Below, one piece after another: positions 19,390-46,239 of a DNA stretch of 64,000 nt (position 1 is the stretch's first letter; each line of letters opens with the position of its first letter). The stretch is from NCBI GenBank assembly GCA_000934665.2, contig KZ538389.1, positions 1 to 64,000 on the forward strand, read 5' to 3'. The translations under genes and the position numbers were made by a program. This stretch comes from Catajapyx aquilonaris (lineage: Eukaryota). The notes beneath the pieces are model-generated. The model had not been told where the DNA came from, did not search any database, and saw only the letters and a program-made list of their open reading frames with translations.

Positions 19390-19396
19390 TACTATA

Positions 19397-19930: not shown

Positions 19931-19932
19931 TA

Positions 19933-22889: not shown

Positions 22890-23172
22890 ACCGAAGCAAG
22901 TTGGTGTAGGGGTTAAGGAGCCAGACTGCTAATTGGGAGGTCCTGGGATCAAATCCCTGGGCCGGCAACTCTGACCGTGGTTTTCTGTGGTTTCCCAGGG
23001 TCCTTCCAGGAAAATTCCGGAGTTGCTTACGTAATTAATAGGCCACAGCCGCTTCCTTCCGTCCCTATCCTATCCCAAAGCCCAGTAAAATGAAAAAGCA
23101 AAGAGTTCCAGGCAAAACAAACTTCCCCCCTACAGAGCCGAAAATGGCTGATAACGGGGTATGAATTATTAT

Positions 23173-23220
<48 letters not shown>
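22890..23220 (+). mobile_element. tRNA-derived SINE family A, copy 1, (TAC)n tail
   Basis: A/B-box-like head (tggtgtagggg ... gggatcaaatccc), shared body ggttttctgtggtttccc...aggccacagccgcttccttcc, short flanking repeat tactgga; near-identical copies at 50679 and 59349. Confidence 0.9.
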
Positions 23221-23221
<1 letters not shown>

Positions 23222-25527
23222 GGATATATAGGTCGATTTGTGCTCATTTGTATATACGATGTGGCAATAGGGGTAAGTTGGTGCATCTTGTTGTGGAGCG
23301 GCATCGGTTGCCGTTCAGAATGTTTTGTGCCTGCGGAACAAAAGCGCCGCTGCTCATTAGCAATTTAATCGAGTAAAAGTTTTGTGCAGTTAGTGAGTCG
23401 AGAGGATGGATCGCCTGAATGAGCACGGGAGCTGCTCATTTCCTTGCATCCACTCCCATTTTGCCAAGGATGAATTCGGGTAAATAGCGACCAAAATCTG
23501 GTCACATGGATCAAGAAGGCAAAACCAGCGTCATCTTCCGCCGTGATTTGTGACTTTGTGGACTGGTGGCGAGGAGCGAACCAACTCCAGTTGGCTCAAG
23601 CTACCCCACATGGCCAAAGTACCCCCTTGGTAGCTTTTTTCATTGCCCTCTGCGCTCTCCCAACTCCGATAACACAACGGGACAAAACGACAACATTCTG
23701 CGGGGTGTAGTGGTAGCGTACATTTACACGGCGGGAGAGCAGTTTTCAGGTGGGAGTTTGGGCTCGGCATCACCTAGATACATACACCTTCATCCTCCCA
23801 CGCCCCTTTGTCCCCGCAGCATGCGCCGAGGATCAATATCTGGCGACAAACTCTTAAAGAGAGCGACGGGCTTCATGTTGCCATTGATGGCGGATGGAAT
23901 GGAGGTCGTCGGTGAAACGAACAGCCGGCTGGACAATCGCCAGAAAAGGGGAGGGGGAAGCGTACTATGTGTATGATGGTGTTTTTTCTGGAGGGGGAAG
24001 TTGGCCCAAAACGTGCTTCCGGTAAAGGTTATTGTGTCAAGGGAAGGCCCAAGATGTACTCTGCGGTTAACCTTCAGAGGAAGATGCCTAAATTGACCTC
24101 GTGCTGAGGAGTCAGCCAGATTTCAGGGACGGGAGTTACGTCACGTGGAATAAGTGCAAGGGATGCCATTACCATAGTGCACACCTAACGGTAAAGGATT
24201 GACCGCATTTCACAGGCTGTGTTGGGTTACAAGTATGACTCCGGTACCGTCCACAATAGTTTTTTGCAGGCTGTAGCTATAGGATCTTAGTCGCAATTTT
24301 TTTGGAAAATAAAACAAATTCATTATCATAAAGTCATTAATTTTTATTATTGTATATATTATCCGTTACATTATTTGAGGGGTGTTGTGGAAGACGTGAT
24401 AGGCTAACCCACATTTTTGTCGTTTTTGACCTGAACAGCTAGCAACTATGTAAAAGACATGACAACCAGTTTGGTATATTCCAAGTTCACGTATCATGCA
24501 CGAGGCGGCCACACGGACTATATAGATCAAAACCCGCATTCGCTGGAAAATTACACTTTTGTGGGTTGTCACGTTTTTCCACCACACCCCTTATTTTTAT
24601 TTAAGTTTTTTGGTTTCCCAAAATTAAGGAAAGGGGGCCTTTGGCTCATCCTGGCTACGCCCATGGAAATAGCGCTTTAAAAAAATTAATGAACCATGTG
24701 TTTCGATCCACAAAGTATCGTCCGGCTCGTACATTTGAGTTTTAATACTCTAATAATGTGTGCAAATGTAACGTGAAGTTATTACACTGTGCGTTGGGGC
24801 ACCTCCGGGTGCTAGTTGTATGCATCGCAAACACAAGTCGGCCATGTTTCACCGAATAATTAGTCGGAAAGTCATTTTGGCGCAGCTTAAATCATGGTTA
24901 ATGCCTCGATTTAGAGGATGTGAACCGATTGGCCGGTGTTGATATTGGCCCCTAGTAATTCGGTTTATGCGGATCTTTTTGGCATACATCCGGGATTTTA
25001 TTTCAATTTGGCCCATAAACCTTTTTGGGCCTGAACTAGGCCTAGTCGCCATGTTTAATGCATGCTCGTGGTATCGTGACATCCGCTCGAATTAGTCTTT
25101 CCTACGGGCCATCCCGGTAGATTAAGGCGGGCAAATGGCGAATTGAAACCCCACGGAACTGCCGGTTTCCTGAGTGGGGAGAGGAGGGGAAGTGGGGAGG
25201 CATGGGAAGAAAGGGGTCCTTCGTTTGATGGGCGTGTCCATGGCCCCATCCCGGGGATATGATGAAGATTGAAGCTGGAAAAGTGGTTGGAATTCCGGCG
25301 GCCGAGCTGCAAAAGATGAAGTGCGATCTCTTGGGGGGTGTGGATGTCTACTAAGTCGAGCTCAAATTGCGGGAGGGAAGCGGGAGGGATGCGGGAGGGG
25401 AATGAAAAGATGACTCTCCCCACCCCACTCCACACTATGGGGACAGCTCGTGTCACATGTGCCTAGAAGCCTTTCAATTCCATGTCCACTTTTCAGGACC
25501 AACAAATAGGGTCCACAAACGCCAGGC

Positions 25528-25528
<1 letters not shown>

Positions 25529-25591
<63 letters not shown>

Positions 25592-25595
25592 TAAT
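25529..25595. repeat. (AAT)n microsatellite
   Basis: Direct reading. Confidence 0.95.
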
Positions 25596-27833
25596 AGCGA
25601 AATTGGACTAACTTGTATGTGAGCAACCACCGACATTTCACGATTTTGTGAAACTGTGTTGCGTTTGTTTTACGAGTGTCGTCACCGGTACTTATACCCA
25701 CATTGAACAAACCTTCCCGTTCCTCTTTCCCAGTTGCGAGAAGTACTCTAGTGCCATCAGGCTAGTGAAAGTACATGGACTGAATCTTTTATACACCATC
25801 ACGATGGCACTAGAGTGTCTCTTTCACCAATTTGGGGCCCAAGTTTTCCCATAGGGTCTTTATGTGAAAGGTTTCACGTGATGCTATCTCTCCATTAGCA
25901 CTTTGGACCCTCCCCAAAAAATAGCGAATGGAACTCCCTCCCCTTTCGTATTCCCTCCAGGCGGAATTCCCCGTCATTTTTTTTTTTTTGCCATCTTCGG
26001 CGTCCTTTTGTGAATATGGGGCTACCGATGCTGAAGGAGGTTGCTCGTACACAGTATATGCGACGAGAAGGTAGATAAAAGGGCGTAAAAAGGGTGGTAG
26101 GACCCGTTTTGCGGTGATGAAACCGTCTTCTTAATAACCGCCTGTAGGCTTTCTTCATTCATTTTTTTTCTTTCACTTGGTCGTAATATGGACGTGGCCC
26201 TTTGATGTGTGCTCTATAAGCTATGGCTAGAGGATTATTCATGTTTTGATGCCAGATAGGGCGAGAGTTGAGGGTTTTCACCGCGCGGTGAATCATTAGC
26301 TCTAATTAGCAGGCCTTTATGGTGGCGCTATACATGATAGAAACAATCCTGTTTACAAGAAGTCTACTTTAGTCGCAATCATCTGAAGGTAGCGTGACTC
26401 ATTGGTTACAGAATTTTACGTAACCATGGGTGACCTCAGCCTTGAACAGTTTTTCATTTTTGGCTAGGTCAAGGCCGCCTATCTCGTTTCCAAGCAAGAT
26501 TTTTGACTCCTCAATGCCACAGGCTATCTGCCATATTGCTACGCTAATTAGCCTAATTAACTGACATGTATTTACATGAGAGAATATTACAAAATCACTC
26601 GTGACATTTATTGTCTCTTTTTAATAGAAAAAAAGTTAAGCTAATAATGAGGAAAGGTTTGGATGTCTACATCGACCATTAAAAGAAACAGGCCGTAATT
26701 ATTTTATATCTTGGGAACCGCCCTGATTAGTGCGAATTTTGTTGCCGTTTAATTACGAGTTATAACCGGATTTTCAGCGCAGTGATATGCACATCACGAA
26801 ACTGGGGGGTTGTTGGGATGGGTTCTCACAACATGCAAAGCGTGTGTCTTCGGCGTTATCGGCGAATTCCATACCTGGTTTTTGCAGTTATGCCAGGAAG
26901 TCAGATTGATGACGTCGATGAATTGACGTGGAAGGGTGATGGTTGTTCATTTACGAAACATTCTTGGTTGGAAAAAATATATGCCAGCAATAGGTCACGT
27001 ACTCAAAGCATGACGTGATTTGAAAGTGCGCCTTTCATATCGGTACGTGCATTTTCTGTGCTTCACACCTTTTTATAAGTGGGAACAGAATTTGATTTAC
27101 GCTAAATCCCTATGCAAACTAACCCAGCATAACTTTAACATTAGTCAGCCTTATATAGCTGCATATATACCTACCGAAATGTCCAGGATATGCCTGGCCG
27201 AAACTTTTTTTGGCAGCTAGTAACAATTTTGTACCGCTGAACTTTGCATTTTTACTAATCCAGGTAATATCAGTGTTTAATCAACAATAAGGTCAGGTGC
27301 GCACTAAAAGGTATGCACCGGCTTGGTGTATAATAGAGAAAGAAAGATTACGCGATGATCCCAGTTGGTGATGCCCCAATTCTAAAATGCTCAGGCACAC
27401 ACTGTGTCGTCACATACGAGATAAACTCCCACCTGATACCAGTTCAACATCCTCGGAATTACATACCACTGGTGATTGGGGCCTCATCAGCGGTAGTCGC
27501 TGCAAGACTACCACGCGTGAATTTTTTTTAAAAAAACCGGGCGCCTTAATATATTTTTTTACATATATATCGGTTGGTTAAATACTTTCTCAAGGATATC
27601 CAGTGTGTGCAGGCAGGCCTATCTGGATCGCAGGTACCAAGGTCAGGCTGTGGTGTTGTGTTTGAAGTCGGGTTGCGTACACAGCGAGCGATTCGTGTGT
27701 CCAGCGGCGGTGTGCATAGGGTTAGCCCTTTTGTGGCGGTGCATCCGGATAATTGTTGTTGTAGAGATGTGGATCGCAGTGGACAGGCTGGGTTGGTGAT
27801 GTTGGGCAGATGGGAGTTGTGGAGGTGGTCAGC

Positions 27834-27880
27834 ATGGGGCAGACCATCTGCTGCTTCACCTATGGGGCCATCTCTGGAAA
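27834..27880 (+). CDS. Candidate alternative first coding exon (MGQTICCFTYGAISGK)
   Basis: Donor AAA|GTGAGT at 27881 in phase 2, in-frame ATGs at 27810 and 27834, upstream in-frame TAG at 27762. Confidence 0.55.
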
Positions 27881-29967
27881 GTGAGTAACTGTATAGGTCA
27901 GGACTTTCATTATTGTGAAAGTTTATGGGCAATCTATGCAGGAATTCTGCAATTAGCAGTATTGTCACGAAGTGTGTTTAATTCAAACGTGCGGGTGTCA
28001 ACCGCAATGATGTAGTTTTTTTTAAATATACATTTCATAGTAGGGTATTAATATCCGATGCCTTTTTGCATGGGGTATGCGTAAATTTTTCGGTTTAATA
28101 AAACATTGAGCGCAGTGATTAACTCGGTGTATTTATAGTCGCGGAAGTTTTTATACACAGTGGAGTATTTCGCAGCATTATGCATAGGACGTCGGTAATT
28201 ACATCTGGGATGAGGCCATTTCAAATGCATTTACATGACATAATTATATATGAGCAGATTGCAAGAAGTTTTTTTTGCATATGTATATGGGCCGACGTGT
28301 TTGCCCCAAGGAAGTGTCATTTTTTCCTTAACAAGGAAATGTCGCATGCGGGGCCTTTAAATAATCCATTTGCATCGCACTTGCGTCGCAATCCTTTTTG
28401 CAACCAGCAGACGACGTCATATTAACACCATTTATTGACAAGTTACGAAACAGACTGGCGGTGATTTCATTGAAGAGTCTGTCGCTCGGGTGACATCCAA
28501 GACTTAACATTTGCACTGATGCATCCTTGGCGACCCAATGGACATCGCACCTTCATAAGGTGCTCGGCTTAATTGAGATGTCAGGTGCGCCTAATTATCC
28601 CTGGCATACTTCCGACACCATCGGGTGCTTATCGTGTCACATCATGCTGGGCGTGGTGGGCTACTTCTCACATTTACATTTAGGCAGACATTTTTCCCCG
28701 TAGCTTTTAATGTGGGTGAGAGTATGGGACGGGGTGAGTGTCATGTCAGTAACGAGCCCATCCCCCTCCCCCCACCCCCTGGAGAGACTGCACGTCGGCA
28801 TTAATTAGGCCAAGAGATGTAGGTACCGCCGTACTAGGGTACCCAGCTTTTGATGCAGCCTCTAACTGTGCTTGCAGTCGTCCCTTCAAGTGGTGCTGAT
28901 GACACTTCATTAAATGTGAATCACCAAGAAGTGGGCTTTGATTGAAATGGTACGCCTTCAACAAGGTGGACTCGGATTGTTTGCCTCCGTTTTATCACGT
29001 GTCTTGATGGAGATAACTGCGCAACTGCATAAGATAAATTGTGCGCTGTTTATTGAGGGTGAAGATAGACTAGGATTTCCCTGACAAGGCCCTATTACTA
29101 TGGGCGGGGGTAGCAGGGGGGCTAACGAACTTTGCGGAGGAGAATTTATGGCCCATGAAAGGAAACAAGGGATGACACCGTCTGTAATACCCTGTCGGAT
29201 AGCGTTAATATTTTCTTAAATATGTTTTGAAAGCGGTTAGAAGTGATACCCTACCACCTCTTTTGGCTCAAAATGTGTTCTGCCATTTTTTGCCCAATAT
29301 TTGAGAGCATTCGGCACACGTTTACCTTGGGCAAAATCCGTGGAAAATTGATGCAGCCTGATGTTACATTAGAGTACAATATTACTCAAGAGGCCCTAAT
29401 ATCCTGGTTTTGAGGACGGTATCAATGGCTGTGAAAAATAAATCTATATAGTGTCGGACAGGACGCAACTGCATAAACGTCATGTTCCAAAATTAGAGCT
29501 CGTTTTTAATGCACTGGTTGGGAGTGACTGGTTAAGCGTTATCATTTTAAATGACGCCTGGCGACAGAGGCTGATGTATTACAATGAATATTTTAGGCCT
29601 GTAGAGAGTATATTTGACTGTGTAGACCCCCAACCCAGACTCTCATCCTGTTTTACTATCGATCCAAATTGCAAAAGTTGCGTAAATACAGAGAGTGCAG
29701 ACATATTTTAATCGATATACGCGGGCGCAGAATTGGGAGAAGACCAAAGAAATATAGAGAGGAAGCGCGTTACAAATAGTACTTTCTTCCCTGTATGTCA
29801 TCTCTCGTCCTGTCACATCACAGCTCGACATTCAACGGATCCGGACTGGCAGTCACGGTACTTAAGTGTGTGTGTGTATATATATGTGTGTGTCAATATT
29901 GTATGTGGCTGTATGTTTGTGAGATAATCGGGCAAAGGATAACGTGGTTTTTTTAAAATGGTTTCAG

Positions 29968-30130
29968 GAAGGCGATAGCGTCGGAAGTTCAGATCTGCGG
30001 CGAGAACGGCGAACCTCGAACCCTTCGAAGCACTGTGGAATGGAGCGAAAGCGTCGTGAATGGCGACCACCTCTGGGTGCCCACGTCGGCTTCCGGTGAC
30101 CTCTGCTACGTGGGAGACGCCGATTGCTGC
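29968..30130 (+). CDS. rdgA: DGK first constant exon, start of C1a domain
   Basis: tttcag|G...TGC|gtaagt; translates KAIASEV...LRSTVEWSESVVNGDHLWVPTSASGDLCYVGDADCC. Confidence 0.92.
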
Positions 30131-33100
30131 GTAAGTCTTATTGTTGCGACACGTGACATTTTCCACGGCACGGATGAGCACCATCCCCCCCCCCCCCCCA
30201 AAAAAAAAAACCCTGGCCTCATTTCTCAGCGGTTGTGACCTTTGGCCTGAGGTTTGTCATTTGAAGGTGGGCCTGAATTGGTCACGGTCACCTGTTTACA
30301 GCCATGATAAGTTGCGCTAAACCCCATCCTTTACCAAATAGGTGCACTGTAGGGTCTTAATTTGCGCGCAGTCTGTACCGCCATGCTAATTAGGTGTAAG
30401 TGACGCTTAGTCCTGAATGACACTCCAGTCGCCAAATATATAGTGAAACAGGTTATGCAGTTAGCTTCAGACATAATTGTCGCTCAACCGGCTCCAAGCC
30501 TTGGTATTATTCTAGAAATTTGTCAAAAGAATGATTTAATGCCTCCAAATTGTGTTTTAACGGGCGTTACGCGTAGCACTTTGATTGTTATTTAGCACGT
30601 TATTGCAGGTCACGGTTCAGTAGGCGGTTGCAATATTTTTCACGCTGGTGTAACACTGATCGAATTCGTATCATGCTGAAGGTCATTCCAAGGGAATTTT
30701 CTTTCCGACCTCCAAATGGAGGAGGATTTCCTTTTTTGTGCGTGTCTGTGCATTTTCAAGTAATATGAGATTATTTTCTACTCTTTTTTCTATTTAATGC
30801 TTTCTTCGTGGCAAGACGAAGCTGAAAGATCTATACTGGAATATCGACAGAAATATCGGTATATTTAGCATCCTTTCTCGTCGCTATACTTCCACGCATC
30901 TAATTTCCTATGGATGTTTTACTAAGCTCGGGGCGAGAGAGAAGTAGAAAGGCATAATTTGAGAAATAAGGTTTTGCAGTGGTCCGCTCTCATTTTTAGT
31001 GGAGGTTGGTACCGACAATTAATATAGTTTAATTATAGTTGAAAAATGAAACTAAATTATTATTTGTTGCGGATAGCTCAAGTTGTGAAAGTCCGAGCGT
31101 TAAAATAACGATTTGACAATAATTTGTCCTATATTTCCGTGCACCACGAACGCTATAAAAATAGTTCATTGCATTCAATTCATAAGTGGGAGGACATTTG
31201 CGTGTTTTCACCAATTTTAAGCTAGTCATATGATCACGCTTGCATGCACTTTTTTGTATTTCATCCTGCGACTAAGCAGTCGAGGTAAAATAATTTATTG
31301 CAATTGTAATTTTAATAGACAGCTTGAAATTTTTGCACACTGGTATAATGGTTTGTGACAATATTAAACTGCAAAATTGCAACTTTCAATTTTATCCTGA
31401 TTGTCACTTCTCATATGGTCAGTAGAAAAGAAACTGAGTTTTACTTAGGCGATGTATATTAGCAACAATCTCCACTAAAATTGAAGCTGGGCACTGGATA
31501 ACCAAGACTTTCTCTCTGAGTCATTCCATGGAGCTGCTATTGTTGCAGCCCAACAACGGATGAACGCACGCGTTTTCAAACAGAAATTAGACCGGGTGAG
31601 GAGGCAATATGTATTAGAATCTGTGAACGTAGACACGTAGTATAGAGAAGATGGCTCACCACCGAAAGCCCTTGGTATGTGCAGCAGAACGGATATTGCC
31701 AGGAAGTACAGGAGGAGTTTCTAGGTGCGAAAATAGTATAGCCTAAGGGGCCTTTCTGAATCAGTCGGAATTCCAACATTTGGACGTTAATTTGTTCATG
31801 TTCAGTTCACTTGCCAAATAACTCGTAGTTATAATGAAAATTGACGACGAGCCACCAGGCCGAGGCATTACACACTGCCACCTACGAAATTGCTTATTTA
31901 CTATCGTTTGTTGTGACAGCTTTAAGGAGCTATTTGGCCTAAAGCACTCCCCTTACTTAGCAAAGGCTCGACTCAGAATAATCAGGCGTATCATTGTCAG
32001 TGTTGCCTCACCCTGCAGTCCAGCTCTCGTACTACATTATTGCGGCAACTGCCTACCATATAAGCTGACGGTTGTTGCTGCAATGGGCCATTACAAGGTC
32101 GGGAAGCCGGTTACGTCATTGTAAATTACGCCCCCGTGAGAAAGTAAATAAAAATAACAATTGTTGGGAACCATCTTCCGGCGGCCTTGCTGACGCTAAC
32201 TCACGCGTGCAGGGTACCTATCTCTAATAGTACAGTGTTCCGTAACCTGAGGGGCGGGCATACCTTTCCCCGGTACATCCGTAGCACAAAGAGCTGGTCC
32301 ATTATGTGCAGAATCCTGGCAACAAAGTGGTCCAATCTCGATAAAATGTTCAGCTTTTTGGGTCCCAAGCAATGTAATTGCATCGGGACGTGAAGTAACA
32401 GCGGCGTAATTGATTAAAAGTTTTACAGTAAAGCGTACCTCCGATATTGAAAGCATGGGGAATGCCAGTTTTTTATTTTTTTATTTTTTTTATAAAGGCG
32501 AGCTCTCTGTTCCACTTCTCTTGAGCAGGGCATGAATGGAAGAGCTTTTGAATGAAGGAACACGGAGGAATTTAAAGGCAGCTTTCCCAGCTTCACTTAT
32601 ATGAGATGCTGGGAAATTCAAAAATTCCACGCGGGCGTGCTTTAACCTGGGGGAGAAGACACGACCAAAAAAAAAAACCTTGAAATCACCTCTCATACCT
32701 GGCCGGTTGCACAATCGAATGGTCGGCATGTGCGAACATGGCCAAAGCAGAGAGTCAACTTGAAAACAAGGTTCATATGTGATGGCAATATTTCCGTATC
32801 GGTGAGCAAGGTCACACAAGTTTAGGTGAATGTAGCTGACAAAGTACAGTGGAATCTACGAATCTTCCTATACTGTAAGCACATCGGATAAAGTCGGTCC
32901 CTATTCATATTTACAGCAGCGCCAAGCGGAGACATGTTACATAATTTTACTTATTTCTCGTGGCCTCAGCCCCCCCCCCCTCCCCGATTGCCGGGGGAGC
33001 CCCCCATGTAAAGGCCTATCGGGGTATACAATAAAACTAAACGAAACTATTAACCTGCGGAACCGAATAATTTTAGCGCCATCAATTTCAAAAAAGTTAT

Positions 33101-34240
33101 CCGATTTGCCTTGTCAACATTGAAATTTTTTTCCCGATCATATTTGACTTGTGCATTAATAGCGCATATTTGAAGATGATTAAATTGTGGATATTGCCAA
33201 ATGTACGCACGTGGAGACTCTTGCATTTGCATCACACCACAGAGAGCCTATAACACGGTACTGTATGCGGCATGCACTGTAGCATATTCCACTGCACAAC
33301 TGCGTGTCACTTTAGAGCGTTAGATGCTTATACTGCGTGTTAGTCCACCTAGTTATCCACTGCGTTGAAACTGCGTAATTTAATGAATTAGTTTCATACC
33401 CCGAAATGAGGCAGTTCCAGTACTGGGATTAAATAGGCACTCATTGTGTTTCCCGTGAACTCTAGTACTGTACCGCTCGCTTGAAATAAGTGCCCTACTG
33501 AACGTGTGGTACTGCACATAGACCGATTGTAAGATGTAATCGAAATGATTTGGCAACGGCGCCGTGCCTACAGTGCGTGTACGTGCCCAAAGTCTGGCAA
33601 TTTGTAAACTGCCATCATGCAATTTAAAGCCGATTTGTCATTCTTGCGCACTTGGCCTTTTTGTGACAAGGAAGGTCACCCGCAGTGAGTCGCTAAATAA
33701 GTGGCGGGATTTTGGGTCATTAAAAAAAAACTATTACTAATAAAAAGGGCGGTATGCCAGGGAGGGGTTGACTTGTTACAATAAATTCATCATGCAAGCC
33801 AGGCTGGCATGCGAGTATAATGCACCAGGGACTAAAATTGCGACATATTCCTTAATTAATTAATTATATTTGACAACTGATAGTATGGAATATAGTGAAT
33901 TAAAATGTGAATGCCCGTACCCCCGGTGTGGGTCAGCAGCAGGCAGGGTAGTCCCACCTGGCAGCTAATGACGTCCTTCTCGAGATGAGTGTTGCTTGGC
34001 AACGGAGCCGCAGCAGCATCCGGATTCACATCAAATAGGCAGGCCATACCTGCCGCCGCAGTTGCTGCACCCCTATGATTTTCCCTGGCCTGAGGCACCT
34101 TTTGTCATATCCGTAACATTCCCCCCACCCATCTTGCACATCCTCCAAACCACCAGAATGTACCTTGTTTCGCTTTGATCAAGGGGCTTATGTTGTCTAC
34201 CGGATGATGGTGCATGGTCTCTTTTTTATTGTTGTTGCAG

Positions 34241-34444
34241 AAGCAGGGAGCCAGGCTGAAGTGCTCGGCCTGCAAAATCATTGCTCACACTGGTTGCATC
34301 AACCATCTCATGGACAAAATGAAGTTTACGTGCAAGCCAACATTCCGAGACGTGGGGATTCGGCAGTACCGGGAGCAGACGGTCATCAACCACCATTGGG
34401 TCCATCGACGTAGCCAGAAAGGGAAATGCAAGCAGTGCGGAAAG
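34241..34444 (+). CDS. rdgA: DGK exon, end of C1a and start of C1b
   Basis: ttgcag|AAG...AAG|gtacgc; KQGARLKCSACKIIAHTGC...CKPTFRD...HHWVHRRSQKGKCKQCGK. Confidence 0.95.
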
Positions 34445-34948
34445 GTACGCGCAATTGGTCAACTTATCTGCCAGATGAAAATGAAAACCAAAATGACATC
34501 GGCCGGTTGCGATTTCAAATTGTAAACGAAGATTAAAATCGGATTTTTGCAATGCCAAAATACAGGGTGTTGTATAGTGTCACTTTTTCAACTGACATTT
34601 TAGAAACAACTTCCGTTAAAAATTGTGGCGGTTCGATGCACAATTTAACCTGGAACATATCTTTCGAAAAGTTGGCACCACACTTTCCCTGAGCTCATGA
34701 AAAATGAAGGGAATAATTATTGAAGCCTGTGAAAGTGGGGAAAAATTTATGGCGCAGTTTTTGGAACTTGGATAGATGTAATACCGGAATTATTAAATTG
34801 ATCATTGATCCTGGTGCGTTAGAAGTGTTGTGTTAAAATGAAATGCAAAATACCTGTGTACATAATTACATCATTATAGGGAGTATCAAAATATGGAGTG
34901 CCCAATTATGTGCAAAAACTACGCGGATATTATTTTTTAATTGGCCTT

Positions 34949-34951
<3 letters not shown>

Positions 34952-35018
<67 letters not shown>
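34952..35018. repeat. (GA)n microsatellite
   Basis: Direct reading; explains the RERERE ORFs. Confidence 0.95.
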
Positions 35019-35022
<4 letters not shown>

Positions 35023-35744
35023 ATATATACTGTATAGATACTATAACATAAAAATGTTTTTTGTTGTTGTTTACAGAGGGTGAATTCTGTTCACCTGTAA
35101 AGGCTAAATCCCTGATTATCTCAAACTGGTTTTAGCCACACAGCATTGCACAAGGTATTCTAGATTCTCACATTGTAGGCCCCAGGTAAATACACCAGAC
35201 GCATTAAGTGAACCATAATATAAGCGAAGGCAACAGAGGTGCATTAATATTCCAAGCGATTGCACTCGTTAGACTGTTTACCAAGCAATTAACAATTAGC
35301 AGAATGTGCTGACTATGCCTTATGTACAGTACCTGCATCATTGACTCATGTCAAGTACACAATTAATTGTTATACAAATTAATAGAACATTTTAATTTTT
35401 GTGGGCTGCAAGGAGTTTTTTTTTTTTACAAAGTGGGACATTAGTGTGGAAGTAGTGATTAACTGACTGAGCCAATAACATTTTGCAGTCAATTCTTGTC
35501 CATTACTTTAAAAGTTAGTCAAGAGAAATTAGTGTGAGAATGGTTGAACATAAAGCATTTTGCATTTTGGCATTGCTTGAATTGTCCTTTGGTGCAGTAA
35601 TTATGGGTTTTTAAGGGTGTAAAAATTCATGCCCATATAGAATTGTGTTGTACTCAGGATTATTGATAAATGAATATGGCACAGTAGGGAGGGAAAGAAT
35701 TCATGATGGGCACCATCATGAATCTAATTGCTTTTTGAAATCAG

Positions 35745-35874
35745 TCTTTTCAGTCCAAGCTCTCCTTCTCATCAAAAGAAATCGTCGCAATCAGCTGCTC
35801 TTGGTGTAAAACGTCATATCATAACAAGGATACCTGCTTTAATATTCAGAGGATTGAGGAGGAATGTACATTAG
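35745..35874 (+). CDS. rdgA: DGK exon, C1b domain (too short for the ORF track)
   Basis: atcag|TCT...TTAG|gtatgt; [44 protein letters not shown]. Confidence 0.92.
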
Positions 35875-35938
35875 GTATGTATGACAGGATCGTTACATTC
35901 CATTGAAATAATTTACTGACCTTGAATTTTCTTGGCAG

Positions 35939-36066
35939 GTAATCATTGTAACATTGTAGTTCCACCAACATGGATTGTAAAATTACCAAAGCGAGGTAGC
36001 TTCAAGTCTAGTATAAGGAAATCTCCAAAGAAGAAATCAAGCAGTAAAAAGAGAAGCAAAGAAAAG
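35939..36066 (+). CDS. rdgA: DGK exon, MARCKS-like basic region / putative NLS
   Basis: ggcag|GT...AAG|gtacgc after a 64-bp intron; NHCNIVVPPTWIVKLPKRGSFKSSIRKSPKKKSSSKKRSKEK. Confidence 0.92.
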
Positions 36067-36144
36067 GTACGCATTTTCGTTTTAATGCTATAATATTAAT
36101 GCAAATGTTGAAATTTATGCCTTTTCTTTCTGCTTGTTCGTCAG

Positions 36145-36326
36145 AGCGAGAAGGACCAAAAAACTTTTGTGATCAAGCCCATTCCCTCAACTTCAATGAA
36201 GCCATTACTGGTGTTCATTAATCCCAAGTCTGGGGGCAATCAAGGTGCCAAGCTCATGCAAAAATTCCAGTGGCTCTTGAACCCTAGGCAGGTGTTTGAT
36301 CTTACTCAGGGTGGACCCAGAGCAGG
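36145..36326 (+). CDS. rdgA: DGK exon, start of catalytic domain
   Basis: gtcag|AGC...GG|gtgagc; [54 protein letters not shown]. Confidence 0.95.
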
Positions 36327-37339
36327 GTGAGCATATTAGCATAATTTATTCTCTAATTGAATTTTTAAAAACATCCTTCATTTCGCTTGAGGGAAAATGC
36401 CATGCAAGGGTACTGCTTTGATTTTTCATTTTTTAAGAAGTGCATTTACAAGTAAAATAATTAATTAAAGATACTTTTGCGAAATGAGATTTGTAATAAA
36501 TTTGATATATTGTATTTAATCAGGCTTTCTAGTTGCTGTATTTAATTATAATCTAGCGAGCAATTTATGAATAAATATCCTGCTAGGAGTACCACATGCT
36601 CAGGCTGTTTGTGATACTTCTTGGTAGTTGTAATTGTAACTGCTAGATTTTGATTAGGTTAATGTAAATATGACAAGGTGAGATGATGTGTTCATCCCGG
36701 CCACACCTAGTGATCAGCTCAGGCTGAGTTAGTTGACTGCACTGAAGTCCCAGTGCATCATAATTTTAGTAAGTCCATCTTGTACATCATGGTTGGATCA
36801 GGTGGATCAGTATCTTAAAGGGACACTCCACTCAAAATACACGTTGGTGTCTAAAAATCAGGCAAAAAATCCTGATTCCGAGAATGCGATCCGTTTTTCT
36901 CTGCGGCGAACGGTAATCCGAAAAATATATCTCAAAGTAGGCCTGCTGCAAACACAAACGTCTCCCCACAGCCGGAACCCAGACCCGAGGCAGGGCCACC
37001 TAGAGACAAGGCCCGGGCGCCGGAATCATGACGTCACGCTAGGGGGCGAGCTCCTCCGTAAGCGGACTATGGCGGGAGCACATTTTTGTACACGTTTTCT
37101 CTATTATTTTCATGCCAATGCATCGGAGGATCATAACACCCTCTAATTGATATCTGGGCAATGATTTGGTGATTACAACGATGTGAAAAAATCGCACATG
37201 TTTTTGTTTGACAGTAGTCAATGGTGGGGGAGAACCCAGCTGTCCTTCGTCCAGATGTCAATCACTTATTCCCTCGAAATTATCCACTCTGATTTAGATA
37301 ACACTGGTCTACAAAATTGTTGTATAATTGGTCTACAAG

Positions 37340-37482
37340 TGTTGGGTATGTACTGTATGTAATTATCAAGAGCTAAATGGTATTATGTTGGGTATGTACT
37401 GTATGTAATTATCAAGAGCTAAATGGTATTATGTTGGGTATGTACTGTATGTAATTATCAAGAGCTAAATGGTATTATGTTG
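37340..37482. repeat. 46-bp minisatellite, 3 identical copies
   Basis: tgttgggtatgtactgtatgtaattatcaagagctaaatggtatta starting at 37340, 37386, 37432. Confidence 0.95.
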
Positions 37483-37945
37483 TGTAATGTGCTAATTTTG
37501 GTTCAATGCTTATGAGTATAACTTGCATGTTACGTTTGGACTCTTTCCGCAAAATAGGAAATATGAAACAATATTAAAATTAATACTTTATAATTTAAAA
37601 CCCCATTGTTATTAATTATTCCTGCACTTCTTCCTCGTGCCTGACATCCTTCGTCTTATATATCGCCGAATATGCAGACACATTGCACACATACTAAATC
37701 GAATTTGGTGCCGTTGGAATCCCCACATTCTTTCCCTGACATCAATTAGAGGGTGTCATGGGCCTCCGATGCATTGGTATGACGAAATTCGCTGAAATGT
37801 GTACAAAAACGTGCTCCCGCCATAGCCCTCTTATGGAAAAGCTAGCCCCCTAGCGTGACGTCACAGCGATCCACCCGTTCCCGCGCCCCGGCCTTGTCTC
37901 TAGGTGCCCGAGGACACCCAGCACTAGGCCCACTACCCAGCACTA

Positions 37946-40900
37946 CTAGAGGGTGGCCAACTTGGAGGATGTTTTTTATTGGCTACGGCCGTCACGTGGG
38001 TTATGGACGCCATGTTTTGTCGTCTCGGACCGCGGGAATAGGCGGCCTTATGAATATTTTCCCCAGTAGCAGTTCTCATATTGCCATTTTGAAATCATAT
38101 GTAGCGCAATTTTACAGCCCGAACTCTTACTGCTTGATGTAAATTCATGGCTGACGGTTTTTGGGCCGGAATATGCAAAACAAGGCCAATATTTTATCAT
38201 TGCTGTATATTTCAATGGTAAACTGCACGATAATAATGCCAAGTATATGTTTTGAAATGTCTCCCATTTTACACAGTGAAACCTGTGTGTAGCGGAATTG
38301 CGCGGGACCTTAAGACTTTCCGTAATGGACAAGTAGCTTCCGCTATATGTAGTATGACATGTAGACTACTGTATACAGTGGAATGTGTATATCGGAATTG
38401 CACGAGACCCTAAAATTTTCCGTAATGGACAAGTTTCTACTATATTAGACATACAGACTGTACAGTGAAACCTGTCCATAACGGGCCCTCTGTATACCGG
38501 AAAACTGTCTATTGCAGAATTATTCTGGGATCGGGCGTATGTATGCATAGGACATGAATTCAGTGTCTAATACAGTAAAACATGTGCATAGCGGAATCGC
38601 ACGGGACCTCAAAATTTTCCGTAATGAACACGTTTACCCTATATACTATATTCGACGCGGAATTTGTCCTATGCATACGCCCGTTCCCGCAATAGACAGG
38701 TTTCCGCTATACAAAGGGTCCGTTATACACAGGTTTCACTACAGTCTACCTAAGGTCCGACATGCGTACAAATTTTACAGTACATATCTAATATAGCGGA
38801 AACTTGTCCATTACGGAGAATTTTAGGGTCCTGTGGCTATGCACAGGTTTCACTCTATTAGAACGGAATTCATGTCCTATGCATATCATATACTATAGCC
38901 TACCCCCGTTCCCAGAAAAATCCTGCAATAGACAGTTTTCCGGTATACAAAGGGCCCGTTATGGACAGGTTTCACTGTACAGTCTGCATGTCTAATATGG
39001 TAGAAACTTGTCCATTACGGAAAATTTTAGGGTCTCGTGCAATTCCGATATACACATTTCACTGTACGCGTATACAGTATACAGTATAGCAAGAGCTAAT
39101 ACAGTAGTCTACATGTCATACTACATATAGCGGAAACTACTTGTCCATTACGGAAAATCTTAAGGTCCCGCGCAATTCCGCTACACACAGGTTTCACTGT
39201 GTAAAATGGGAGACATTTCAAAACATATGCTTGGCATTATTATCGTGCAGTTTACCAAATACAGCAATGATAAAATATTGGCCTTGCTTTGCATATTCCG
39301 GCCCAAAAACCGTCAGCCATGAATTTACATCAAGCAGTAAGAGTTCCGGCTGTAAAACTGCACCACATATGATTTCAAAATGGCAATTTGAGAAGTGCTA
39401 CTGGGGAAAACATTATATGGTTTCACCATAAGGCCGCCTATTCCCGCGCTCCGAGACGACAAAACATGGCGGCCAAAACGAAGTTGGCCACCCTCTAGGT
39501 ATGAAGGCCCACTACCCAGCACCTCGCCTGCGCGCCATCGTGCGGGAGGGCCGGGAAGCTCAGAGCATGCGCCGTTCTGTTCATCGCNACTCAGCAGCCG
39601 CTACAGCTATTGCGCTATTCTGCGACTCGGTATCACTGCATTTTCGCTCTAAAATGACGCGTGACTGACAATACTTCCTGCAGGCTTGCTGCAGGGTACT
39701 GTACGGTACTAAATAAAATCCTGTATAAAAATAAGGAGGAACGGAGTGAAAAAAAAGACACAGAAGAAAAGACGACGAAAAAAAGAGTGAGGGGAAAAAA
39801 GGAAGCCTCACCCGGACGCGAACCTGCAGCCTTCTGATTTATAGGCCAGCGCGCTAACCATTACGCTACGGCAGCCATCGCTGAGATTGCTCCTTCCGAT
39901 GGGGATTCTTATACTGCGCAGAGGTCAGGACGCCGTTAAATGACTAATGACGTGGAGGGGGCGAGCGTGTTGATATTTTCAGTGCTGGAATATTAATTTT
40001 CACTACTTGATGTGATGTGGGCAGGGGGTAGGGGTACGATGTACTAACCCAACCCAACCTAACCTAACCTTCACTCGTTGTGGATACAGCCCTATCTTCA
40101 GCGGATACAGCCCTACGGACGGATGTGACTACATCCGTATATGATAGCAGGATAGCGATAGCGGAATCGCAGGAGCTGCTACGGAGTAGCAGTTATCCGA
40201 TGGAGTGATCGGATCGGCGATGAACAGAACGGCGCATGCGCTGCGCTTCCCGGCCCTCCCGCACGATGGCGCGCAGGCGAGGTGCTGGGTAGTGGGCCTT
40301 CATACCTAGAGGGTGGCCAACTTCGTTTTGGCCGCCATGTTTTGTCGTCTCGGAGCGCGGGAATAGGCGGCCTTATGGTGAAACCATATAATGTTTTCCG
40401 CAGTAGCACTTCTGAAATTGCCATTTTGAAATCATATGTGGTGCAGTTTTACAGCCCGAACTCTTACTGCTTGATGTAAATTCATGGTGACGGTTTTTGG
40501 GCCGGAATATGCAAAACAAGGCCAATATTTTATCATTGCTGTATTTGGTAAACTGTACGATAATAATGCCAAGCATATGTTTTGAAATGTCTCCCATTTT
40601 ACACAGTGAAACCTGTGTGTAGCGGAATTGCGCGGGACCTTAAGATTTTCCGTAATGGACAAGTATTTTCCGCTATATTATGTAGTATGACATGTAGACT
40701 ACTGTATACTGTATACAGTGAAATGTGTATATCGGAATTGCACGAGACCCTAAAATTTTCCGTAATGGACAAGTTTCTACCATATGAGACATGCAGACTG
40801 TACAGGGAGACCTGTCCATAACGGAACCTTTGTATACCGGAAAACTGTCTATTGCAGGATTTTTCTGGGAACGGGGGTAGGCTATAGTATATGATATGCA

Positions 40901-41698
40901 TAGGACATGAATTCCGTGTCTAATAGAGTGAAACCTGTGCGTAGCTAAATTGCACAGGACCCTAAAATTCTCCGTAATGGACAAGTTTCCGCTATATTAG
41001 ATATGTACTGTACATACACGAGTATATCGTACTGTAAAATTTGTACTCATGTCGGACAGGTAGACTGTAGTGAAACCTGTCTATAACGGACCCTTTGTAT
41101 AGCGGGAACCTGTTTATTGCGGGAACGGGCGTATGCATAGGACATAAATTCCGCGTCGAATATAGTATATAGGGTAAACGTGTTCATTACGGAAAATTTT
41201 GAGGTCCCGTGCGATTCCGCTATGCACATGTTTTACTGTATTAGACACTGAATTCATGTCCTATGCATACATACGCCCGATCCCAGAATAATTCTGCAAT
41301 AGAGAGTTTTCCGGTATACAAAGGTTCCGTTATGGACAGGTACAGTACACACAGGTTTCACTGTGTAAAATGGGAGACATTTCAAAACATATGCTTGGCA
41401 TTATTATCGTGCAGTTTACCAAAATATGCAGCAATGATAAAATATTGGCCTTGTTTTGCATATTCCGGTCCAAAAACCGCCAGCCACGAATTTACATCAA
41501 TCAGTGAGAGTTCTGGCTGTAAAATTGCGCTACATATGATTTCAAAATGGCAATATGAGAACTGCTACTGGGGAAAACCCGGGGAAAACATTCATAAGGC
41601 CGCCTATTCCCGCGGTCCGAGACGACAAAACATGGCGTCCATAACCCACGTGATGGCCGTAGCCAATAAAAAACATCCTCCAAGTTGGCCACCCTCTA
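37946..41698. repeat. Palindrome of palindromes: unit A (37946-39587) and inverted copy A' (40217-41698)
   Basis: Four recognisable copies of the same arm in alternating orientation; the ORF track repeats MSITENLKVPRNSATHRF on both strands. Confidence 0.9.
39805..39876 (-). pseudogene. Degenerate tRNA-like / Pol III promoter segment
   Basis: Reverse complement has A box TAGCGTAATGG, imperfect B box GGTTCGCGTCC and a downstream T6 run. Acceptor stem and anticodon loop are non-canonical. Confidence 0.55.
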
Positions 41699-43172
41699 GG
41701 TATGAAGGCCCACTAGTGCTGGGTAATGCTCCCTGGCAGGGTCCCCTACATGGTTGCCTCCCCCACCCTAACCAGGGTATTGTCTCCACGTAGTCCTTAT
41801 GGGGCGTCCATATTGGATCTAGATTGCATGCTGGAGGATAGGAAATTGGCAAGCGTCCAATTTTTTTTTTCAAGGACATTTTTTTCACTGCATGCAGATC
41901 CAATCTGATTTAGGTCCCAATATGTCGGAGAGACAATACCCTCTCTAGGTGGGGGAGGCACTCATGGAGGTTACCCTGCTCCCTGGGGTCCTTGGGTCCT
42001 AGCCAGCCCACGGACACTTATAATACGTTCTGGCGTCATCACCTGCCGAGGCATTTTGCAGCGGGTGCTCACCTGAGACCGCCATGAGACATTTCGGAGG
42101 CCAGGATCAGTGGCGACCCTACCGGATTAGGCTGAACTTTATAGGTACGAAAGGGGAGGGCTACATGATGGCCCAACATGGCCGCCGAATGTAGCCCTCC
42201 CCTTTCGTACCTATAAAGTTCAGCCTAATCCGGTAGGGTCGCCACTTATCCTGGCCTCCTAAATGTCTCCTGGCGGTCTCAGGTGAGCACCCGCTGCAAA
42301 ACTCCTCGGCAGGGGGTGGGTGGGAGTGACCAGACCTTACTTACGAGATGACCGTGGTCCTAGCCACGGCTGTAGAAGACAGGTTAGGTCACTCCCCACC
42401 CACCCCCTGCCGAAGGATTACGCACCGACTGCTCACTTGAGACCTCCACGAGACATTTCCCAGAGCATTTATGTGGCGACCCTACCGGACTAAGGCTGAA
42501 CTTTATAGGTACGAAAGGAAAGGGCTTGTGGGGTCCAACATGGCCGCCGGCGGCCATGTTGGGCCAGCATGTAGCGCTTCCCTCTAGTACCTATAAAGTT
42601 CAGCCTTAGTCCGGTAGGGTCGCCACATAAATGCTCTGGGAAATGTCTCGTGGAGGTCTCACGTGAGCAGTCGGTGCGTAATCCCTCGGCAGGTGATAAG
42701 CCCAGAAGATAGGGGTAGTGTCCGTGGGCTGGTCCTAGCTGTGTAGAGACGTTTTTCTGCAAACCCCCTGCCCCTCCAGTCTCGGCGACACCTCCCCCCG
42801 GCCACCTGGCGGCTGCCTGAGGAAGTTGGATACCCGTCACCAGCAGCGCGAGTTTGAAATGCAGTTCGGGGTCGGATATTGCTGGCTGCTGCCAATGCAT
42901 ATGTTGTCACCGAGGTATTACTTTCCGGACCTCGCCTTTGCTTGGCCCCTAATTGTTTACCGGTGGCCTACATCTGTTGCTCCCGTATACACCAATTTAG
43001 TCGCAGTAGTGCTTCATATTGGAATTAAGTCATTGAAACAGAACCATTAGCAAAATGTTCGGTCCAAACACATTTTAGCTGCTATTCTCAAACTGATGTG
43101 CACTGGGGAAAAGGGGTGCATCAGGAGATATGTCAAACATAGTCATTGGGCTCGATGGCTGAGGAAACATTA

Positions 43173-43611
43173 GGGGTCGTCCATATACCACGTGACCGTT
43201 TTGTGGGGAGGGGGGGGGGGGTCTGCTGATATACCACGGTTGGTCACTGGGGGNNNNNNNNNNNNNNNNNNNNNNNNNNNNNNNNNNNNNNNNNNNNNNN
43301 NNNNNNNNNNNNNNNNNNNNNNNNNNNNNNNNNNNNNNNNNNNNNNNNNNNNNNNNNNNNNNNNNNNNNNNNNNNNNNNNNNNNNNNNNNNNNNNNNNNN
43401 NNNNNNNNNNNNNNNNNNNNNNNNNNNNNNNNNNNNNNNNNNNNNNNNNNNNNNNNNNNNNNNNNNNNNNNNNNNNNNNNNNNNNNNNNNNNNNNNNNNN
43501 NNNNNNNNNNNNNNNNNNNNNNNNNNNNNNNNNNNNNNNNNNNNNNNNNNNNNNNNNNNCGACCCCCCCCCCCCGACCCCCCGTCACCAACCGTGGTATT
43601 TGCACGACCCC
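43173..43611. mobile_element. PIF/Harbinger-like MITE spanning an assembly gap (N run 43254-43559)
   Basis: TIRs GGGGTCGTCCATATACCACG / CGTGGTATTTGCACGACCCC, flanks TTA / TTT. Confidence 0.65.
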
Positions 43612-43743
43612 TTTATACCTGTGCATCAGTATTGGACACATCAACAACAGTGGATGTTCCGGTGCTGGTTTCCATGTCTGATGTGCACTGGGGGAGGGGG
43701 GTGCAATAAAATATACGCACATTGACGCTGTGCCACATTATTC

Positions 43744-44029
43744 CTATCTCCAGGGCTCCAGTGTTGGAACAGCATTAGGCTTTAGTTTCCGCCTCTTCTG
43801 TTCCGGTCTGTAGGGAAATAGCGACTGCCTGTGAAAGTGATCCATGCACACCTGATGACCTGACACGGGTGTATACGTTGGTGGCAAATTCAAGGCTTCT
43901 CGCCATTGCCGCATCAAATCCTGACGTTCGCAAGGAAATACGAAATACGTCACTCGCTCCAACCGTTTCCTATGGCGCTTACAAATAAACTACACAGAAC
44001 GGGACACCACCCTTGCCTTTCTTGCCCAT
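43744..44029 (-). pseudogene. THAP zinc-finger domain coding sequence with one frameshift
   Basis: MGKKGKGGVPFCVVY-[frameshift]-CKRHRKRLERVTYFVFP...RQWREAL...VCMDHF...RKLKPNAVPTL: the C2CH residues, conserved P, W and F and the AVPT box are all present. Confidence 0.85.
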
Positions 44030-45125
44030 GATGCTACTTGCGTCCAAGCCCGCCTCGATATGCCGGACTGGAAGGCCAGAAATGATAATCCCCCCTGCCG
44101 AAGTGCTAAACATACACATGTGTCGCCTTCCAGTCGTTCCCTCCGGGCGTTTAGTCATGGGGATCTGATGCGGGAGCAACAGATGTAGTCCACCCGTAAA
44201 CAATCAGGGACCTCGGTGACAACATAATTATGCATTGGCAGCATCCAGTAATATCCGACCCCGAACTGCATTTCAAACTCGCGCTGCTGGTGACGGGTAT
44301 CCAACTTCCTCAGGCAGCCGCCAGGTGGCCGGTATCCAACTTCGCCCGGTGGCCGCGGGTGAGGTGGGCGTCTCCACGGTCGATCAGAAGTCGAATTTAT
44401 TCCGACTTTCGTATCTGAGTCCCCTGTCATTACCGATCGCCTCAGAGATAAACAGATCGCATTCTCGCTCGGAATGAGGATTTTCTGCCTGATTTTTAGA
44501 GGCCAACTTGTATTTTGAGTGGAGTGTCCCTTTAAACCTAGTTCTTCATGTGTCAAGAGGACCATGGACGATGCTGAGGCTAAGATTGTGTGTTTGGATA
44601 GGTGTAAATGGCATAGGTTGATTAATGGGGGTGAGAAATGGAGGAGGAGCGAGGTACACAGGAGATGACAGGAGCATTCATGCAGACAATTACACACACC
44701 AGGCAGCCACAGGATGGACAGGCGGGGAGAGCCCCAACACTTGGTACGCCGCAGAGTAGGGCCTGCATGCCTTAACTTAGGGTGGGAGTGCAATCGACTG
44801 GGCGGCCAGGGTGTCAGAGTGGCCAGAGAGGATCCTGCTGGCCGGCACATGGTGCTCGGGGTACCTGCCACCCTGTCCGTCATCTGAGATGGGCAATTGG
44901 GCAGGGTTGGGGGGTGGGACAGGTTGCTTATAGTTTTATTTTTACAAGTTTATGCGGGGTTAACTTGCGTCTCCCTTCATCGCTGACTACCCATTATAGG
45001 GAAATGTCGTGTTGTTGTTGTTGTTGTACATCAACAGGAAACCAAAATCTCACTATCTATCCTACTTCTTCCATCTTATGGTGAATTCTATTGGCTCAAT
45101 AATCATGTTTTGCTTGATCATCTAG

Positions 45126-45300
45126 GTTGGAGCTTTACCGCAAGGTTCCAAACCTGCGAGTGCTGGCCTGTGGAGGTGATGGTACAGTTGGCTGGGTCTT
45201 GTCAGTATTAGACCAGATTGGAATCACTCCTCCTCCAGCAGTAGGAGTATTGCCACTTGGTACTGGAAATGACCTGGCCAGGTCCCTTGGATGGGGTGGG
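45126..45300 (+). CDS. rdgA: DGK exon, ATP-binding GGDG motif
   Basis: tctag|G...GGG|gtgagt; [29 protein letters not shown]...[17 protein letters not shown]. Confidence 0.96.
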
Positions 45301-46239
45301 GTGAGTTGGAGTACCCTGGAAGAAGTTGATTCAACTGTGGCACAGTTTGACTGTCCCGCAGTGGTGTTTGGGATAGATGGGGTTGTGTTTGCTCTCTTTT
45401 AGATAATAATCCAATATGAAAAACAGCTTCACATTATTTACTCTAATTTTTAACTGTATTGCATAATTTAGTTGACTAATTCCCTGCTCACACCAAAAAC
45501 TATTCTCCATAGATCTTTCAAGTTTGCCTTTCATTGGGAGGTGCTTATGAGAATCAAAATTTCTCAATATCCTATGATATAAATGCTATGTGCTTAGTGT
45601 TATGGGCAGGTTACATGTTACAGCAGTTCAAATGATAACACAGTGACTTGTTTCTAGTCTGTGCATCATTTTTACAGGGTTTGTCAAAACTATTTTCACA
45701 AACTCTGCAGGCATGTACTACAGTAACTACACCATACAACCTGATACAACTAACAAAGAAGTCCTAATACATGTGTGTTGTGCAGTACCAGTAACCCATA
45801 TTGTACTTGTAGTTGCCTTATACACACTATAATTCTACAAGAAACAGGAGCACTGGTAGTGATGTTGAACAATGGTACCTCACAAGAATGTGTGAAACAT
45901 ATTTAACTTCAGAGAGCATAGCAAAATAGCCTACTGATTCACTCCTACCTTCCTGCCTGGTTTGTGAAGGCAGTGCATGCATTATGTTCATTGCACTACT
46001 GATTTCTAACAGCTCGAAAAATGAACATTCGCAGGACTTAGGTGATGGCAACTACAAGGCTTGTGTTTCGGAAACATTGTTTCTGGACTCATGTATATTG
46101 GGATTAATTTTTCTAGTTCTGAGATGTAGAATGAACCTGCAAATTAGTACAATAGATTTGAGAACACCAGCATGTGCCCCCAGCTATTAATATTGTTCTG
46201 AGAGTTCCTGAACATTTTCCTATAAATACAGTATCTCAA

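Follow-up and report, generated by a model that had tools for sequence, protein, structure and literature searches.

How does a single intron come to hold 7.7 kb of DNA that consists almost wholly of inverted repeats? The first 64,000 nucleotides of contig KZ538389.1 of the Catajapyx aquilonaris assembly GCA_000934665.2, the stretch that we analyzed and call the window, raise this question. An intron of about 8.8 kb splits the catalytic domain of a diacylglycerol kinase (DGK) gene there, and 88% of it is filled by O, a TTAA-flanked, non-autonomous element whose interior is made up almost entirely of inverted repeats. An earlier note on this DNA had read O as one Kolobok-like element whose chain of hairpins arose by repeated fold-back duplication. 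We consider it likely that the block is instead a transposon nest inside the DGK intron, assembled mainly as non-autonomous, hairpin-forming DNA transposons inserted one after another, by cut and paste, into each other. The nesting is backed by inverted repeats, target-site duplications (TSDs), arm pairing that returns when inserts are removed, dissimilarity of the modules, their unequal abundance, and alternative contig junctions.

At the outer boundary, TTAA stands at 36815-36818 and 44532-44535, immediately outside AGGGACACTCC... and ...GGAGTGTCCCT. The terminal inverted repeat (TIR) of O, 36815-36917 against 44429-44535, aligns over 107 columns at 87.85% identity (E 4.6e-29), with arms of 103 and 107 nt and the terminus AGGGACACTCC at both ends, so that the TTAA-bounded TIRs of about 100 bp described earlier stand. 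The terminus sequence, AGGGACACTCCACTC, is bounded by TTAA, and the 24-nt terminus was found at two sites only in the 64-kb window (expected 0, 100 shuffles). All seven inverted-repeat modules that had been listed within O are real, and the remainder of the 64 kb contains no copy of any of them; their arrangement, however, is a tree of nested elements and not a chain (Table 1).

Inside O lies the foldback F. An exact 8-bp TSD, CTGCAAAC, flanks it at 36946-36953 and 42757-42764, the sole two plus-strand copies of this sequence in the window, and its inverted termini read A(C/A)AAACGTCTC. The inner arms, aligned as 39480-39587 and 40217-40324, match at 106 of 108 positions. Contigs of an independent sample span 39520-39657 and 40044-40282, with both inner arms contiguous with the loop, and the inverted repeat of F is thus native to its family. 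The outer arms are separated by inserts. When two of these, H and C, were cut out of the right arm in silico, leaving one TSD copy each, the right arm matched left-arm positions 36956-36993 at 31 of 38 positions; the score of 34 compares with 300 shuffles that averaged 14.2 (standard deviation 2.3) and peaked at 25. Within the loop, at 39988-40115, several contigs jump back (40100 to 39988, 40115 to 40034 and 40115 to 40006, with a few extra letters), which suggests that loop paralogues carry a tandem unit of roughly 80-110 nt.

Each F arm holds inserts of its own. H is bounded by an exact 8-bp TSD, CTCCCTGG, at 41729-41736 and 41979-41986, and C by TCCTAG (6-8 bp) at 41997-42002 and 42733-42738. 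X1e and X2e, a mirror pair with one member in each arm, are flanked by exact 8-bp TSDs, and that of X2e, GTGCTGGG, is the reverse complement of that of X1e, CCCAGCAC. An exact 8-mer at both junctions, with offsets of ±4 allowed per side, has a chance of about 0.0012 per module. The site at which A breaks up the left arm is homologous to that of H in the right arm. It contains a tandem array (37340-37486; 46-bp unit, 3.2 copies, 99% identity), and more abundant paralogous contigs have two fewer 46-bp units (joint 37339 to 37432, depth 550-726). We rejected the idea that A and H derive from one insert by divergence; the two resemble each other only weakly (score 27 versus 19.9 ± 1.4, 15 shuffles).

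C is a second-order palindrome that matches its own reverse complement at 590 positions over 730 nt. Its predicted fold, the only one of a module for which we have a z-score, reaches -638.4 kcal/mol versus -271 ± 8 for 20 shuffles (z -44). The stretches 42042-42313 and 42406-42693, formerly taken for separate modules, both fall within this palindrome (42003-42732) as its parts C1 and C2; each is 95% self-complementary, and they are 87-88% alike. The 92-nt spacer between them, 42314-42405, is itself a palindrome, GGGTGGGTGGGAGTGACC... pairing with ...GGTCACTCCCCACCCACCC, and C thus folds as a stem bearing three hairpins.

The remainder of O centers on D, a core with its own inverted repeat, and on M, a hairpin that sits inside D. 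The segments between the O TIR and the D inverted repeat do not pair (score 13 versus a shuffle mean of 13.1), and D may be either the native body of O or an older insert. When 45 module pairs were compared, strong likeness was seen only in the two expected inverted-repeat pairs; three pairs (A-H, A-R and H-D2) were weakly alike (15 shuffles each), and on this comparison the modules appear unrelated in sequence.

Table 1. Features of the nest and of the flanking DGK gene, with summed contig depth (three runs of the main sample unless marked).
Feature	Position	Strand	Description	Summed depth
C1 domain ORF	34208-34522	+	just under cut-off	
Upstream DGK exon end	36202..36326	+	DAGK_cat positions 1-38 (ORF 36112-36327); GT donor ~36327	
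O	36815..44535 (element proper 36819-44531)		outer TTAA-flanked non-autonomous element; terminus AGGGA	7035-11,944 (bin with left terminus); 23,785-39,788 (bin with right terminus)
F	36954..42756		5.8-kb foldback inserted in O; outer arms start 36954, end 42756; basis 8-bp TSD	
F inner arms	39515-39587 and 40217-40289			
F loop	39588..40216		629 nt; belongs to high-depth repeat family	701-6674 (1196-6674 for 39588-40216)
A	36994..37909		hairpin MITE in F left arm; 32-nt terminal inverted repeat; 152-nt inverted repeat at 82%	403-1803
X1e	37944..39514		1.57-kb foldback in F left arm; flanked by CCCAGCAC	19-423 (X bins)
X2e	40290..41715		mirror copy of X in F right arm; termini TAGTGGGCC...GGCCCACTA	
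H	41737..41978		242-bp hairpin MITE in F right arm; termini CAGGGT...ACCCTG	
C	42003..42732		730-bp second-order palindrome; shell stem + C1 42042-42313 + spacer hairpin + C2 42406-42693	10,156-26,524 (C region); 17,925-26,524 (42003-42732)
D	42798..44332		core with 119/123-nt inverted repeat; arms 42798-42916 / 44210-44332, 95%	336-4910 (run X1)
M	43172..43612		hairpin MITE inside D; AGGGGTCG termini; centre = 306-N gap 43254-43559	
THAP-domain ORF remnant	43744..43989	-	81 aa; antisense to DGK gene	
Downstream DGK exon	45127..45345	+	DAGK_cat positions 46-119 (ORF 45118-45399); AG acceptor 45125-45126	
ORF, open reading frame; MITE, miniature inverted-repeat transposable element.

We also examined public sequencing contigs. 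Parts of the region occur in five runs, of which four share a sample and the fifth belongs to a second study; none is recorded as RNA. Contigs of four runs were placed at a likeness of at least 85%; the figures hold among the contigs listed, and summed contig depth serves as a rough proxy, not as a copy number. The unique left flank has a summed depth of 25-33 (about 28), and module depths span from approximately single-copy, where X lies, to about 900 times single-copy. Loose contig ends fall at module ends: at 44535, the end of O, 47 and 40 contigs pass into unlike flanks (agreement 0.36); at 41978, the end of H, two runs each have 12 contigs that depart for unlike sequence; and at 42731, the end of C, one contig of the independent sample stops. 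Other contigs skip modules. One joint, 36944 to 42756 (depth 318), skips 5811 nt, which is F plus one TSD copy, and another, 36880 to 42757 (depth 266), also skips F. A third, 43170 to 43616, skips 445 nt (depth 165-224; shorter side up to 160 nt), which points to D paralogues without M. A further contig links 36973 to 39520 without A or X, with 13 other letters between.

These observations bear directly on the proposal that one large Kolobok-like element enlarged its interior by repeated fold-back duplication of itself, which we now regard as very unlikely. Modules grown from one another would not be expected to be unrelated in sequence, to differ in abundance up to about 1000-fold, to be missing from some contigs, as F and M are, or to leave an older inverted repeat restored when H and C are cut out. 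The earlier proposal was, moreover, open to contradiction by modules that occur as independent MITEs with TSDs of their own, and F, H, X1e, X2e and C all carry TSDs, exact ones as scored here. The public contigs add partial evidence that the modules also occur as solitary copies. Features that do suit growth by folding back are the absence of separate TSDs from the two hairpins of the C palindrome, the placement of A and H at homologous positions in the two F arms, and above all X1 and X2 with the F inner arms, which form a true inverted duplication at 97.8% identity. Fold-back duplication thus looks right for the X pair alone and fails for the other modules.

The spans 37946-39498 and 40217-41698, previously listed as two independent modules, are mirror copies of one foldback, X, astride the 629-nt loop. 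When X1e plus inner arm is aligned with the reverse complement of inner arm plus X2e, 1405 of 1437 aligned bases match and 32 do not (97.8%), with 14 indels. The two arms within X are less alike, at 92.9% for X1e and 90.0% for its mirror copy, and X1e matches its own reverse complement at 1304 positions over 1571 nt. The high-identity tract begins at the loop edge and extends outward across X as far as two bases past the TSD, and its 97.8% differs from the 82% (31/38) of the F outer arms (Fisher p 3.6e-5). The simplest reading would be a single insertion of X followed by its copying into the other F arm, and the X pair is the only module set that looks like true arm-to-arm copying. High identity of X and the inner arms beside lower identity of the outer arms is the pattern expected of arm-to-arm conversion, as described for sex-chromosome palindromes (PMC8600007, PMC8981503), although those span tens of kb and hold genes, whereas the X case has a scale of about 1.6 kb inside a transposon and its mechanism is inferred. 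Copying of X and the adjoining inner arm between arms by snap-back templated repair from the loop, giving palindrome arms of ~1.5-1.65 kb at 97.8%, is a mechanism that we put forward only tentatively and with doubt.

The left end of X1e lacks 14 nt. Across 37917-37945 the order is CCCAGCAC, an 11-nt X remnant (TAG + GCCCACTA, the first 3 and last 8 bases), CCCAGCAC again, and X1e; the remnant and a third copy of CCCAGCAC occupy 37917-37935. A signature of two insertions at one target site has been described (PMC5932611), and by analogy with that description this end has the appearance of two insertions at a single target, with a deletion afterwards; we offer it as a lead only.

Could the assembly itself have created the block? 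A mis-join or collapse of high-copy repeats would be likeliest at the 3.8-kb palindrome, where a single N at 39588 marks the exact arm/loop boundary of F, and in the region of the 306-N gap. The single N falls precisely on a repeat boundary and the gap on the centre of a hairpin, neither of which the earlier note mentions; high-depth repeats account for most modules, and the 2014 runs yield short contigs, none of which spans the region. A mis-join, however, would not give matching exact 8-bp TSDs around F, H, X1e and X2e, excision of inserts would not then restore arm pairing, and X is present in the reads in two distinct forms: contigs specific to X2 show 0-1 differences over 41137-41323 (depth 46-71), and a second form, with 16 differences and 7 gaps, stands at a depth of 31.6. 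An artefact is improbable to our minds.

There is likewise only a slim chance that the two O ends are the products of different insertions by one TTAA-MITE family, or of one truncated copy each, and that 36815-44535 was never one mobile unit. TTAA flanks every copy of the family and is uninformative on this point, only the left flank is unique, the right one being a high-depth repeat, and the stretches from the O TIR to the D inverted repeat do not pair. Most family members, however, diverge from O past 36879-36882 and, mirror-wise, before 44468, the large family comprising the first ~65 nt only, and the two O arms go on to share a subfamily-specific subterminal part (36883-36917 with 44429-44467) beyond that point. 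Paralogous contigs also run from the left arm into 42757 and onward.

Abutting the right TTAA of O, 44536-45030 is a very high-depth repeat (summed depth ~16,700-20,800 in the bin 44739-45000) that ends in (GTT)n at ~45012-45030, just upstream of the 3' splice site. It may be a retroposon or an element like a short interspersed nuclear element (SINE). We dropped the idea that this repeat is bounded by a TTAA at 44960, as contigs run through that point.

Several points weigh against a nest built by insertion. A has no clean TSD, and a 7-nt repeat, CCCGAGG (36984-36990 and 37907-37913), is out of register with its inverted-repeat ends; C1 and C2 each lack a TSD, and D has none that is recognizable. 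The contig from 36973 to 39520 has 13 intervening letters where ~32 would be expected from the right arm, and the joints that skip F have 31-32 nt on the shorter side, with the letters between not known. Of the junctions, the left flank-to-TIR one alone is covered, by a 1846-nt contig that runs from the flank 25 nt into the O TIR with zero differences; across the internal ones there is neither a long read nor a single contig. The abundances rest on summed contig depth, which is no copy number, and the assembly carries an N exactly at the arm/loop boundary as well as the 306-N gap. TTAA is palindromic and an invariant flank, and is no proof of a single O insertion event; it is also indistinguishable from part of the inverted repeat, as is CTAG at the X core. 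With a unique left flank and a high-depth repeat on the right, the two ends of O might stem from separate insertions. The autonomous partner sharing the TIR, which had been proposed as something to look for, was not found by THAP protein searches or among ORFs beside related termini in metagenome contigs (30 of 76 scanned, see below).

We propose the following sequence of events for a nest built mainly by insertion. TTAA-specific O, of a very abundant AGGGA-terminus MITE family (Kolobok/T2-like), would have entered the intron, possibly already carrying the THAP-bearing D. A foldback MITE of ~0.9 kb, F, would then have entered O and duplicated CTGCAAAC. The F arms would subsequently have received A, X, H and C, and D would have received M. 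Finally, X and the adjoining inner arm would have been copied across the F arms, yielding the 3.8-kb palindrome, probably by snap-back (fold-back templated) repair or by arm-to-arm gene conversion starting at the loop. We infer this order, as we do the copying mechanism and the superfamily labels below, and the composite as a whole would be immobile.

Insertion of one MITE into another by independent events is well documented (Jiang and Wessler 2001, via PMC5172404). The C. aquilonaris block resembles nested MITE multimers as that account describes them, MITE within MITE with a TSD for each (PMC5172404). It is unlike them in its at least three nesting levels and at least six families, its place in an animal intron, and the presence of one insert in both arms of the host inverted repeat.

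To what superfamily might O belong? Kolobok elements, as described in PMC6004289, have a TTAA target and RR termini, with T2-MITE ends of AGGRR and a transposase that combines DDE, THAP and H2CH; they are reported in all arthropods surveyed in PMC6327564. O is like the Kolobok T2-MITEs of that first account (Xmix, Xenopus) in its TTAA target, its AGGGA terminus, which fits AGGRR, and its high copy number (PMC6004289). The tandem array inside A recalls Xstir inside Xmix, and a THAP domain, typical of Kolobok transposases, lies within O, although perhaps in the separate insert D (both comparisons after PMC6004289).

This THAP domain had been missed before. The ORF remnant matches Pfam PF05485 (E 2.1e-12; 48.1 bits versus a cut-off of 23.9), and a stop codon removes its first Cys region. 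Among the 12 O-overlapping ORFs scanned, out of 38 of at least 70 aa, it was the sole ORF with a family match, and none had a DDE or H2CH domain, which sets O apart from Kolobok transposases and agrees with the earlier statement that no DDE transposase is visible. An exhaustive search of 1.84 billion representatives with the THAP ORF returned 54 matches at E <= 0.001, all distant; the best were 32-35% identical and multi-THAP. All 17 of these 54 that were scanned were THAP proteins, one of them with DDE_Tnp_4 (Harbinger-type DDE). The nearest relatives of the remnant are host multi-THAP proteins, and the Atlas yielded nothing beyond small THAP clusters of arthropods or chordates. Among longer proteins, a word search with this ORF found none. 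These relatives give no superfamily assignment for O. The best matches include giant proteins (P0001-P0004, P0006 and P0009) of 3700-5700 aa with 10-21 matched THAP stretches each. The Kolobok-like label for the O shell thus keeps its TTAA target, its AGGGA terminus and now a THAP remnant, lacks DDE and H2CH among the 12 ORFs scanned, and on sequence features is reasonable but unproven.

We scanned metagenome contigs with the 20-nt O terminus and obtained at least 120 loci, whose likeness to the window is limited to the terminal ~24 nt and which have animal genes beside them. TTAA stood outside 116 of the 135 termini that carry the same 20-mer, and 13 of 15 complete copies (118-614 bp) had TTAA at both ends. 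These counts indicate that the O terminus defines a TTAA-specific MITE lineage that reaches beyond this genome. The 30 of 76 ORFs beside these termini that were scanned yielded no THAP or known transposase family at E <= 1e-4. One contig, L040, has a 931-aa frame (1396-4188, plus strand) with N-terminal C2H2-like fingers that ends exactly at the TTAA of a MITE (terminus 4191-4210). Its likeness to Transposase_21 (E 0.05) and to DUF4218 (E 0.22) is weak, and a MITE of the same family as O may here have broken into a transposase gene.

Other transposon groups were compared as well. The TTAA target is also that of piggyBac MITEs, whose termini are CCC...GGG; those of O are AGGG...CCCT, and we rejected a piggyBac assignment. 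H and X resemble hAT-type MITEs in their exact 8-bp TSDs and their termini (CAGGG... and TAGTG...). F has an 8-bp TSD like hAT elements, but its terminus, ACAAACG, lies outside the hAT terminal rule YARNG. No transposase was seen in the modules considered in this comparison. X and C are almost entirely inverted repeat, as are foldback (FB-like) transposons such as Tetris of Drosophila virilis in the description of PMC4079207, and the ~60-nt subrepeats dispersed in the X arms bring the same element to mind (PMC4079207). Tandem Repeats Finder detected no array in X or C, only dispersed repeats of ~60 nt at 80-90% identity, and X is unlike FB-like elements in having no tandem subrepeat arrays and in being low-copy here.

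The host gene was identified from a domain scan of all 299 ORFs of at least 60 aa outside O. Nine plus-strand ORFs bore DGK-type domains: two each with DAGK_acc, DGKI, ankyrin and DAGK_cat, and one with C1. At the downstream exon, identity to arthropod eye-specific (rdgA-type) DGKs is 88-97%, and by this likeness the host gene is an arthropod-type, rdgA/zeta-like DGK. DAGK_cat exons on the plus strand lie on either side of O, confirming that the element sits within DGK pre-mRNA. In the region between the two DGK ankyrin-repeat matches, the window has its sole Rfam match, at 59354-59425 (plus strand). The sequence there is tRNA-like (32.5 bits; gathering score 29) and could represent either a tRNA gene or the head of a tRNA-derived SINE. 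Within O no Rfam family matched, and ARAGORN found no tRNA in 36000-46000.

We folded the whole plus-strand RNA of O. The single minimum free energy (MFE) fold has -4956.6 kcal/mol with 78% of bases paired, and predicts the multi-branched structure that had been anticipated. Its stems mirror the nesting, the O stem enclosing the F stem, and D enclosing M; the folded F stem in turn surrounds A, H, C with both of its hairpins, and one unbroken X1-loop-X2 stem that exceeds 1400 pairs. On this model, plus-strand DGK pre-mRNA would carry long double-stranded stems, with no function implied.

Once the TSDs are read and the inserts removed in silico, the block becomes ordinary nested MITE clutter, and it can serve as a worked example of such a reading. 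It supplies annotators of this genome with six repeat families with exact boundaries. The 20-nt TIR terminus with TTAA, common to O and to a MITE family of an unrelated animal, points to a conserved recognition end and is a lead to the autonomous transposase. The mirrored X copy is a small, clean case for the homogenization or extension of foldback inverted repeats; if the copying is true, it would be a directly readable example of arm lengthening in foldback elements. For the host, transposon-derived sequence capable of forming long double-stranded RNA takes up 88% of a DGK intron, and the sense-oriented X palindrome in the intron of an rdgA-type DGK could, if the reading is correct, be a source of hairpin-RNA small interfering RNAs against X, or a target of RNA editing.

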